Shown here: one piece after another, positions 24,480 to 25,278 of the stretch
Layout of the letters: each line of letters opens with the position of its first letter
How positions within the stretch are numbered: position 1 is the stretch's first letter
Source of the DNA: a virus
Lineage: Duplodnaviria > Heunggongvirae > Uroviricota > Caudoviricetes
Virus record (IMG/VR): IMGVR_UViG_2541047945_000011
Strand: one strand, 5' to 3'
DNA: 48,989 nucleotides
Notes under the pieces: generated by a model
Told to the model about the DNA's origin: nothing
What the model saw: only the letters and a program-made list of their open reading frames with translations
The model's database searches: none
Translations under genes and position numbers: made by a program

Positions 24480-24953
24480 TTATTTCAGGCACTGAGTGCG
24501 GATATAGTCCTGTGCCCCTTCCAGTTGCTTGTGCATCGTCATCAGCCGCTCTCTGAGGGTGAAATAATCCCGTGTAACGGTGTCTGCCAGTTGGGGGCCG
24601 GTTGCATTATCCACGCCGGAGGTGGTGGGGGCTTCACGCACGGAGCCTGGACAGGTGGCGTTGATCCGCAGGCGCTTACGACCAGCGGCAACGTCAGCGC
24701 GAAGAGTTTCATTTTCAGCTCTCGCATCGGCTAATTCCCTCGAGTATTTTGCATCGAGCGCAGCAACATCGCGCTGGCGCACCTGCATATCAGTAATGGT
24801 TGCGTTCGCCAGCTTCAGTTCACTGGCTTTGTTATCGCGCTGCGCTTTGTAGGTAATCGCGTTATCACGGTAATGGTCTGTTGCCATCCACAGCGCACCA
24901 CAGGCCACCAGCAGAATAACGATAAACGCGGAAAGCATTCGGTTTATGTTCAC
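24480..24953 (-). CDS. Rz: i-spanin Rz
   Basis: ...[14 protein letters not shown]...[42 protein letters not shown]...[17 protein letters not shown] matches lambda Rz. Confidence 0.9.
24542..24727 (-). CDS. Rz1: o-spanin Rz1, embedded in Rz in the +1 frame
   Basis: ...[10 protein letters not shown]...[30 protein letters not shown] matches lambda Rz1; lipobox present. Confidence 0.85.
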
Positions 24954-25081
24954 CCCAGCAACCCCGACGAAGACAACATCATCCAGGCCATGGAAAGAAA
25001 AAGAGCAACCAGCATTAGTGAAAATGAAATGCCGACAATTACACAGAGGATCTTCGCCAGCGTTATGAGTTTGTCTGACAT
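24950..25081 (-). CDS. Tiny membrane protein (43 aa) inserted between endolysin and Rz
   Basis: ATG at 25081 with GGGAGGA RBS; single TM ([26 protein letters not shown]); its stop overlaps the Rz GTG start (GTGA). Confidence 0.4.
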
Positions 25082-25095
25082 GCTTAATCCTCCCT

Positions 25096-25278
25096 TCACG
25101 ATTTCAACGCAATGACCAGTTTTGCCAGCCCATACAGCATCGGGGACACAGCAACACCGACCGCCACCCACTTAATGGCAAAAGCCAGTGCTCTGCTGAT
25201 GTCATCAGTTACAGGCGCTTTCAGTTCAAGGCCATTTTTCATAGTCAACCTCAACAGAATTCGTTTACACTTCGCCAT
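25096..25278 (-). CDS. Small membrane-anchored protein (60 aa) inserted between endolysin and Rz
   Basis: ATG at 25278 with AGGGAG RBS; basic N-terminus, C-terminal TM ([29 protein letters not shown]); its stop overlaps the RBS of the next gene. Confidence 0.4.

Follow-up and report, generated by a model that had tools for sequence, protein, structure and literature searches.

Two small genes between the endolysin and Rz genes of an Escherichia coli lambdoid prophage are candidate accessory lysis factors

The virus record IMGVR_UViG_2541047945_000011, a stretch of 48,989 nucleotides (nt) that we refer to as the window, is an Escherichia coli lambdoid prophage. Between its endolysin gene R and its inner-membrane spanin (i-spanin) gene Rz lie two small genes, p60 and p43, named for the lengths of their products (60 and 43 amino acids, aa). 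Sequence comparisons indicate that both are real genes under purifying selection, and each is a promising candidate for a novel accessory factor in lysis. That they encode non-essential, late-expressed inner-membrane modulators of the lysis pathway is a reading to which we give slightly less than an even chance; seeing them as regulators of lysis is sensible, though not proven.

An earlier note on this DNA described an insert of ~480 bp between R and Rz, holding open reading frames (ORFs) of 60 and 43 aa, where lambda has the two genes adjacent. The distance from the R stop to the GTG start of Rz is 481 nt, and the coordinates and sizes are right: p60 occupies positions 25096-25278 and p43 positions 24950-25081. 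Both begin with ATG and lie on the minus strand, as do all the lysis-cassette genes and the other features located below by window coordinates. In the lambda record R and Rz overlap, with no such small genes between them; R and Rz are likewise adjacent in phage 21, and both DLP12 and phage 21 have an R/Rz overlap with no known genes of the p60 or p43 type. The strong ribosome-binding sites reported by the note are also there: the Shine-Dalgarno (SD) sequence AAGGGAGA ends 3 nt before the p60 ATG, and GGGAGGA lies 7 nt before the single start of p43. The stop/start overlaps said to link R to Rz hold at one junction, where the p43 stop overlaps one possible Rz start (GTGA, 24953-24950), but p60 and p43 are 14 nt apart, and 156 non-coding nt separate R from p60.

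Coding evidence and predicted proteins

Selection was assessed over a set of 164 related loci, in which 83 copies of p60 and 161 of p43 passed a filter for full-length, ungapped sequence; the ORF is intact in all of these copies. The ratio of nonsynonymous to synonymous substitution (dN/dS) is 0.14 for p60 (bootstrap 95% confidence interval, 0.03-0.30) and 0.33 for p43 (0.19-0.59), compared with 0.09 for R, 0.34 for Rz, and 0.8-1.9 for the other frames of the gene strand. The check on conservation as coding sequence that the earlier note had proposed thus comes out in favor of both genes.

The antisense frame that shares its wobble positions with the genes is also open in related loci and also has a low dN/dS (0.27 and 0.37), and dN/dS by itself cannot tell the sense frame from this one. 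Such an open, apparently constrained antisense frame is the expected by-product of hydrophobic coding rich in NTN and GCN codons. If p60 and p43 were spurious, that is, chance frames in a non-coding insert, this pattern would fit, as would their very short length and the lack of a Pfam or NCBIfam family for either. We consider this very improbable. The gene strand is favored because the start codons and SD sites of the small ORFs are conserved on it and because the sense frame is free of stops (0/19) in a set of 19 divergent relatives of p60 that spans several genera, where its dN/dS is 0.22 at a proportion of synonymous differences (pS) of 0.59. For the wobble-aligned antisense frame of the same relatives, dN/dS is 0.34 and one of the 19 has a stop; the remaining four frames have dN/dS of 1.1-1.8 and stops in 7-19 of the 19 sequences (7 for the codon-aligned antisense frame, 18-19 for the other two off-frames).

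Both genes are catalogued but uncharacterized, and both families are unnamed. RefSeq lists p60 (WP_001446668.1) and p43 (WP_001280932.1) as hypothetical proteins; p60 matches PHROG 1115 (E = 4e-42) and belongs to a family comprising PHROG 1115/4493/3246, and p43 matches PHROG 4906 (E = 2e-23), all of uncharacterized function there. No Pfam family matches p60 at E ≤ 1, the only Pfam hit of p43 is a sub-threshold one to DUF3930 (13 bits against a cut-off of 25), and NCBIfam and PADLOC have no match to either protein. The two show no detectable kinship with each other (3% probability by hhalign). Literature searches by accession, peptide string, and topic found no paper on p60 or p43.

The p43 protein is nearly all one strongly hydrophobic helix, with a mean Kyte-Doolittle hydropathy of 2.89 over the 19-residue window 11-29. 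Its charges, Lys4 and Lys10, are on the N-terminal side of the helix, and its tail, SSSGLLG, is uncharged, so the positive-inside rule predicts a single-pass protein with the N-terminus in and the C-terminus out. In the alignment a VGxSF core is invariant, and there is a face of small residues, G17/S21/A25/S29. The family signature is a protein of ~43 aa, of the form M(I)SDKLIT...VGxSF..., encoded directly 5′ of Rz; the p43 of the window conforms to it.

The p60 protein is basic (net charge +7), with a hydrophilic N-terminal part of ~28 residues followed by a hydrophobic C-terminal helix. The mean hydropathy of the C-terminal segment (1.88) is near that of the signal-arrest-release (SAR) domain of R (1.74), and the segment keeps conserved Lys/Arg residues (Lys36, Lys53, and Lys59). 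AlphaFold2 models p60 as a single 35-residue helix (residues 25-59), at a modest predicted local distance difference test score (pLDDT) of 64. A C-terminal transmembrane (TM) anchor in p60 is therefore plausible, not secure.

The family consensus of p60 reads M(R)[16 protein letters not shown](I/V)DAPVTKEIS..A.A.AIR/K…YG.A+L..A…, and the protein of the window fits the family motif [[12 protein letters not shown]]-M-K-N-G-L-E-x-D/K-A-P-V-T, followed by the hydrophobic helix with its conserved Lys/Arg and preceded by an upstream hairpin. The window allele carries Cys4 (25267-25269; MAKCKR) where nearly all family members have Tyr4.

The p60 gene also has a pair of conserved in-frame starts. The first, an ATG or a GTG served by an SD site, keeps its position throughout. 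Twelve codons on, Met13 is invariant and is preceded at 6-7 nt by GAGG or GGAGG in 19 of 19 distinct loci; in the window this internal site spans 25240-25252 (GAGG at 25252-25249, ATG at 25242-25240). The internal SD is kept by a rare AGG codon in one subfamily ("RLT") and by GAG-GCC in another ("EAN"), which amounts to synonymous-site conservation across genera. Many database entries of the family are called from Met13. The conservation of the internal SD together with the invariant Met13 suggests that Met13 is a probable second translation start, with products of 60 aa (+7) and 48 aa (+3); the long form would add K3, K5, R6, and R10.

In Salmonella-type copies (L164, L165, L177, L179, L180, and L189 of our locus set), an 8-codon leader ORF encoding MCREVCSL and a stop lies ~40 nt upstream of the p60-like start. 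Its stop codon (TGA) shares bases with the GTG that starts the p60-like gene, and an AGGGA…TCCCT stem covers the SD. The E. coli copy looks like a deletion that fused the leader ATG to p60.

The 3′ end of p43 is interlocked with the start of Rz. It contains GGGGTGA, which overlaps the Rz GTG or, alternatively, is SD-like for the ATG that RefSeq takes as the start of Rz; in phage BP-4795 it is found 8 nt ahead of the Rz ATG. Which codon starts Rz is ambiguous (24936-24953): from the GTG at 24953 the protein begins MNINRMLS…, with an Arg as in its homologues (MNR…), and from the RefSeq ATG at 24938 the N-terminus has no basic residue. In other phages the C-terminal RWW and stop codons of a p60-like gene (TGGTGGTGA) end 1 nt before the Rz ATG. 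The overlap at the p43 stop, the GGGGTGA element, and the RWW arrangement are what one would expect if p43, and the 3′ end of p60-like genes elsewhere, were a translated leader that couples ribosomes to Rz and whose peptide is barely functional. We judge this to be improbable, since purifying selection extends over the whole length of p43 with its invariant VGxSF core, the conserved 26-residue hydrophobic helix would be superfluous for a leader, and lambda couples R directly to Rz without one. Under the favored reading as a lysis modulator, the last codons of p43 would form part of the Rz ribosome-binding or start region, and p43 may be functionally tied to Rz.

The upstream hairpin and the genomic contexts of the two genes

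The spacer between the R stop and the p60 start (156 nt, 25279-25434) contains a terminator-like hairpin, found by a terminator scan and by folding, at 25303-25345, 25 nt upstream of p60. It consists of an A-run, a GC-stem, and a T-run, and resembles an intrinsic terminator in either orientation. Aligning 16 loci gives a consensus stem of 9 bp, four of whose pairs show compensatory changes. Compared with shuffled sequence, the spacer as a unit has no folding advantage (z = -0.75); the hairpin is the one element that stands out. All 155 nt of spacer also follow R in many Shiga toxin (Stx) phages and E. coli prophages that have no p60, and the spacer is 84%-92% conserved where ant or other genes replace p60 (also in locus L083, 1647-1745); in BP-4795 the similarity stops after ~100 nt.

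All p60-family genes that we inspected (L164-L191), in whatever context (lysis cassette, tail-fiber end, or baseplate cluster), have a like hairpin 25-60 nt upstream. Because the gene keeps its own hairpin in every context, sequence comparison indicates that hairpin and ORF move as a unit. The copy in the window would then be one of a mobile cassette made up of the hairpin, a first start, a 12-codon basic extension with an internal SD, and the Met13 start, after which come the conserved KNGLExDAPVT motif and the hydrophobic helix with its conserved Lys/Arg.

A search for sigma-70-like promoters found none between the hairpin and p60, nor elsewhere in 24300-26100 on either strand, although this was a simple consensus search that a weak promoter could escape. 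Rfam has no RNA family in 23000-27500 at E ≤ 1, save for a chance small nucleolar RNA match outside the region. In a lambdoid late operon only Q-modified polymerase would pass a site like the hairpin, from which we infer that expression is late only: p60 and p43 would be transcribed on the Q-antiterminated late transcript with S, R, and Rz/Rz1, and the hairpin would confine p60, p43, and Rz to true late, terminator-resistant transcription.

These signals also bear on the suggestion in the earlier note of a type-I-toxin-like module. In such a reading, which we extend to selfish modules in general, a toxic hydrophobic peptide would be silenced by RNA structure or antisense RNA and would persist through the cost of its loss. 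Like hok/mok, the window genes encode peptides that are small and hydrophobic or basic; the hairpin before p60 looks like a terminator whichever way it is read; and the overlapping leader ORF and SD-masking stem of the Salmonella-type copies recall mok/hok coupling. Unlike with hok/mok, neither an antisense RNA nor a promoter was found in the scanned interval, there is no Rfam match, and p60 is embedded in a late operon. The small genes are co-oriented with the late genes and packed at 0-14 nt, which points to co-transcription, not autonomy, and a Yersinia prophage remnant retains its p60-like gene only together with Rz. The suggestion of a toxin-like module therefore fared poorly, and we regard it as having little probability.

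The two genes are widespread in E. coli. Among 5426 complete genomes, p43 is found in 1750, at 4658 places, and p60 in 1598. Homologues of p43 were found in Escherichia/Shigella sequences only. The gene is intact in 276 phage records, mostly unannotated there and mostly of Stx-converting phages, including phi24B, Min27, and BP-4795 (ORF50); in such phages the order is R, spacer, ant (antirepressor), p43, Rz. Wherever p43 and Rz occur together, p43 is immediately 5′ of Rz, whether p60 or ant is upstream.

Profile searches widen the p60 family, whose loci form at least 241 clusters, to Salmonella, Klebsiella, Serratia, Yersinia, and Enterobacter. A search of 1.84 billion cluster representatives returned only 20 relatives of p60 and no link to a named family, and a profile scan of GTDB species representatives yielded no confirmed locus. 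In the commonest context an endolysin gene is followed after 90-280 nt by the p60-like gene and, 2-20 nt further on, by an i-spanin gene; genomes of E. coli, Salmonella, and Yersinia show this order, as do IMG/VR viral contigs without an assigned host. The flanking genes themselves vary: the endolysins 5′ of the family include glycoside hydrolase family 24 (GH24) enzymes of the SAR type, other GH24 enzymes, GH19, and GH108, and the spanins 3′ of it include PF03245 Rz, DUF2514, and a third TM protein without a Pfam match. In Yersinia enterocolitica (L172-L174) >1000 contigs carry a prophage remnant in which a p60-like gene, its small ORF intact, is accompanied by Rz, a DUF4222 gene, and IS110.

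Isolated phages rarely carry the family, which occurs in nine of 50,697 genomes, all from phages of E. coli: GER2, phiSTEC1575-Stx2k, and seven members of the PhiR series, phages that form plaques on K-12/C. The sequence around the small ORFs of the window (1.6 kb) is 88%-96% identical to the plaque-forming temperate PhiR-series phages and 100% identical to prophages of many clinical E. coli genomes.

The region between R and Rz is clearly dynamic. The comparison of R-Rz junctions in relatives, which the earlier note had recommended, gives p60 with p43, ant with p43, p60 alone, or four tiny ORFs. The last of these arrangements is found in E. coli JJ1886 (sequence type 131; L171, 2340-2850), where four tiny hydrophobic ORFs follow one another: a 31-aa ORF, p43, a GTG-started truncated p60 that overlaps the p43 stop, and a 28-aa mini p60-like ORF ending in RWW before Rz.

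Weighing a role in lysis

The support for p60 and p43 acting in lysis is indirect and positional, p43 being always 5′ of Rz and p60-family genes recurring between unrelated endolysins and spanins in several genera. Our favored reading is that p60 may act at the endolysin-to-spanin stage or on holin triggering, and that both proteins might tune the timing or efficiency of holin, endolysin, and spanin firing from the inner membrane. Dual starts may yield two p60 isoforms differing in N-terminal charge. By analogy, the most likely role is an accessory one like those of P2 LysA, antiholins, Mu releasin, and LambdaSo Lcc6.

The closest parallel in position is lysA of phage P2, which the P2 record places between the endolysin gene K and the spanin genes lysB/C and annotates as affecting the timing of lysis. 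LysA and p60/p43 occupy the same place, from endolysin to i-spanin, and LysA is non-essential. The P2 protein is much the larger (141 aa, compared with 60 and 43) and is a membrane protein with several TM segments; we know of no upstream hairpin or dual start for lysA.

A second parallel is the Mu releasin gp25 (DUF2730), a small membrane-tethered protein needed for release of the SAR endolysin; it has 99 aa, a single TM domain (TMD) with the N-terminus out and the C-terminus in, and an acidic cytoplasmic domain of 73 aa (PMC9239132). What it shares with the window genes is being a small single-TMD accessory lysis factor encoded a few genes from a SAR endolysin. The layout of p60 is the reverse, however, with a basic N-terminal part and a C-terminal helix, and p43 is almost without a soluble part. 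Mu has no holin, whereas the window cassette has a pinholin, and relatives of p60 also lie beside non-SAR endolysins, unlike gp25 with its SAR partner.

The third is Lcc6 of the Shewanella phage LambdaSo, a small TM protein (65 aa) that lysis requires at the pinholin stage (bioRxiv 10.1101/2024.01.23.576932). Compared by description only, Lcc6 is similar in being a single-TM protein of unknown family in a system of pinholin, SAR endolysin, and Rz-Rz1. It differs in having an N-terminal TM segment and a 43-aa cytoplasmic tail, in being encoded far from the lysis cassette, near xis, and in being essential for lysis.

Dual-start holins (lambda S107/S105 and phage 21 S71/S68) formally resemble p60 in having two conserved in-frame starts, with a longer product that carries, or in p60 would carry, more N-terminal positive charge; the lambda record shows S and S′. 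Their starts are two to three codons apart and the proteins have two to three TMDs, whereas the starts of p60 are 12 codons apart, there is one hydrophobic helix, and we infer the use of both starts. Neither p60 nor p43 matches a Pfam or NCBIfam holin family, and the holin of the cassette is a separate class II gene.

Several findings weigh against a role in lysis. BLASTP with P2 LysA gives E = 33 for p60 and no alignment for p43, so no similarity is detected, and neither protein has a Pfam match to DUF2730. The hydrophobic segment of p60 is marginal as a TM helix. Since lambda, phage 21, and DLP12 do without them, p60 and p43 are dispensable for such cassettes. The junction holds ant in Stx phages and may be merely a permissive insertion site. 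Roughly one in three of the distinct contexts of the p60 family is not a lysis cassette: in Salmonella, relatives follow tail-fiber or Tfa genes; others precede a tail assembly chaperone gene; and in Klebsiella and Serratia they are flanked by the baseplate spike and sheath-initiator genes. These tail-fiber and baseplate contexts weaken the case for an obligate lysis role of p60. Nor does p60 go with any single class of holin or endolysin, a pattern that speaks against a dedicated SAR or pinholin partner. The proposal of an antiholin or lysis-timing regulator in the earlier note is thus supported in part and indirectly, by position. Salmonella locus L169 (3305-3668) has tandem p60 paralogues (64 and 55 aa) at a prophage end, in the interval from a SASA tail-spike gene to a DUF1353 gene.

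The main rival reading is that p60 and p43 are mobile accessory genes unrelated to lysis (morons, in the broad sense) and that the R/Rz junction is a tolerated landing site. Their job could then be superinfection exclusion, blocking of a membrane-acting host defense, or modification of the host envelope. The tail-fiber, tail assembly chaperone, and baseplate contexts are in line with this, as are the joint travel of hairpin and ORF, the presence of ant at the same junction, the four tiny ORFs of JJ1886, and a mosaic distribution nearly confined to prophages (nine of 50,697 isolated phage genomes). One mark of a moron, extra DNA between genes that are adjacent or overlapping in lambda, is present, and the lambdoid morons bor, lom, and HK97 gp15 are likewise small envelope proteins, mosaic in distribution and inserted between genes that are adjacent in relatives.

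A classic moron, however, is expressed from the prophage by a promoter of its own and is followed by a factor-independent terminator. At p60 the hairpin is upstream, no promoter-like site was found in the interval scanned, and no terminator follows the genes, as the p43 stop overlaps the Rz start: the opposite of a promoter-gene-terminator layout. Without a promoter-like site, the expression in the lysogen that exclusion needs has no visible basis. Neutral insertion would hardly produce the order endolysin, p60, spanin across unrelated families, and PADLOC has no match for either protein. On balance we think lysis-unrelated cargo possible, though on the unlikely side.

A more specific form of the lysis-modulator reading is, in our estimate, similarly doubtful. 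It would make the p60 family an unrecognized lysis component of Enterobacterales, terminator-gated and dual-start, whose isoforms regulate the endolysin-spanin step or holin triggering; p43 would be its Escherichia-specific partner, packing through G17/S21/A25/S29 on the Rz TMD or on the pinholin. On this view the standard cassette of Stx and other lambdoid prophages would have an overlooked fourth and fifth gene, with an influence on lysis timing and hence on Shiga toxin release.

The rest of the cassette and its significance

The cassette runs in the order S, a DUF1327/YdfR-like gene, R, p60, p43, Rz/Rz1, and a TonB_C lipoprotein gene. S (26900-27115) encodes a 71-aa class II pinholin of the phage 21 type, identified from the ORF list and from the RefSeq label "class II holin family protein"; this label is that of a matching E. 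coli prophage, whose identity to the window is established for 24400-26000. The pinholin begins MYQMEK (27104-27115), and its longer form gains no Lys. The phage 21 S71 protein starts MKSM…. With no extra Lys in the longer form, charge-based antiholin logic may not hold for this allele.

Between S and R, a gene of 297 aa (26005-26898) matches DUF1327 and is YdfR-like; relatives have a shorter (~114 aa) or truncated version in its place. R (25435-25968) encodes a SAR-type lysozyme of 177 aa (PF00959, E = 2e-24; PHROG 7) with a weakly hydrophobic N-terminal segment. Downstream of p43, Rz (24480-24953; PF03245) contains the embedded gene of the outer-membrane spanin (o-spanin) Rz1 (24542-24727; PF06085). 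The TonB_C-domain lipoprotein gene (23843-24223; PF03544; "TonB family protein" in RefSeq) lies 3′ of Rz, in the position of bor in lambda. Its assignment by PHROGs to an "Rz-like spanin" family (phrog_1267) looks like a labeling error.

Lysis cassettes of phages of Gram-negative bacteria are usually described as consisting of holin, endolysin, and spanin. Recent work on Mu releasin and LambdaSo Lcc6 shows that this description can leave out small membrane proteins with an essential or regulatory part in lysis. The present genes are common, with p43 in about a third of complete E. coli genomes and in hundreds of Stx-phage records, most of which do not annotate it. Should they prove to be unrelated cargo, the hairpin with its dual-start micro-gene would still be a compact mobile unit that deserves proper annotation. 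If either protein tunes lysis, burst size, the outcome of prophage induction, and the timing of Shiga toxin release would be affected, with a simple genetic handle on each.

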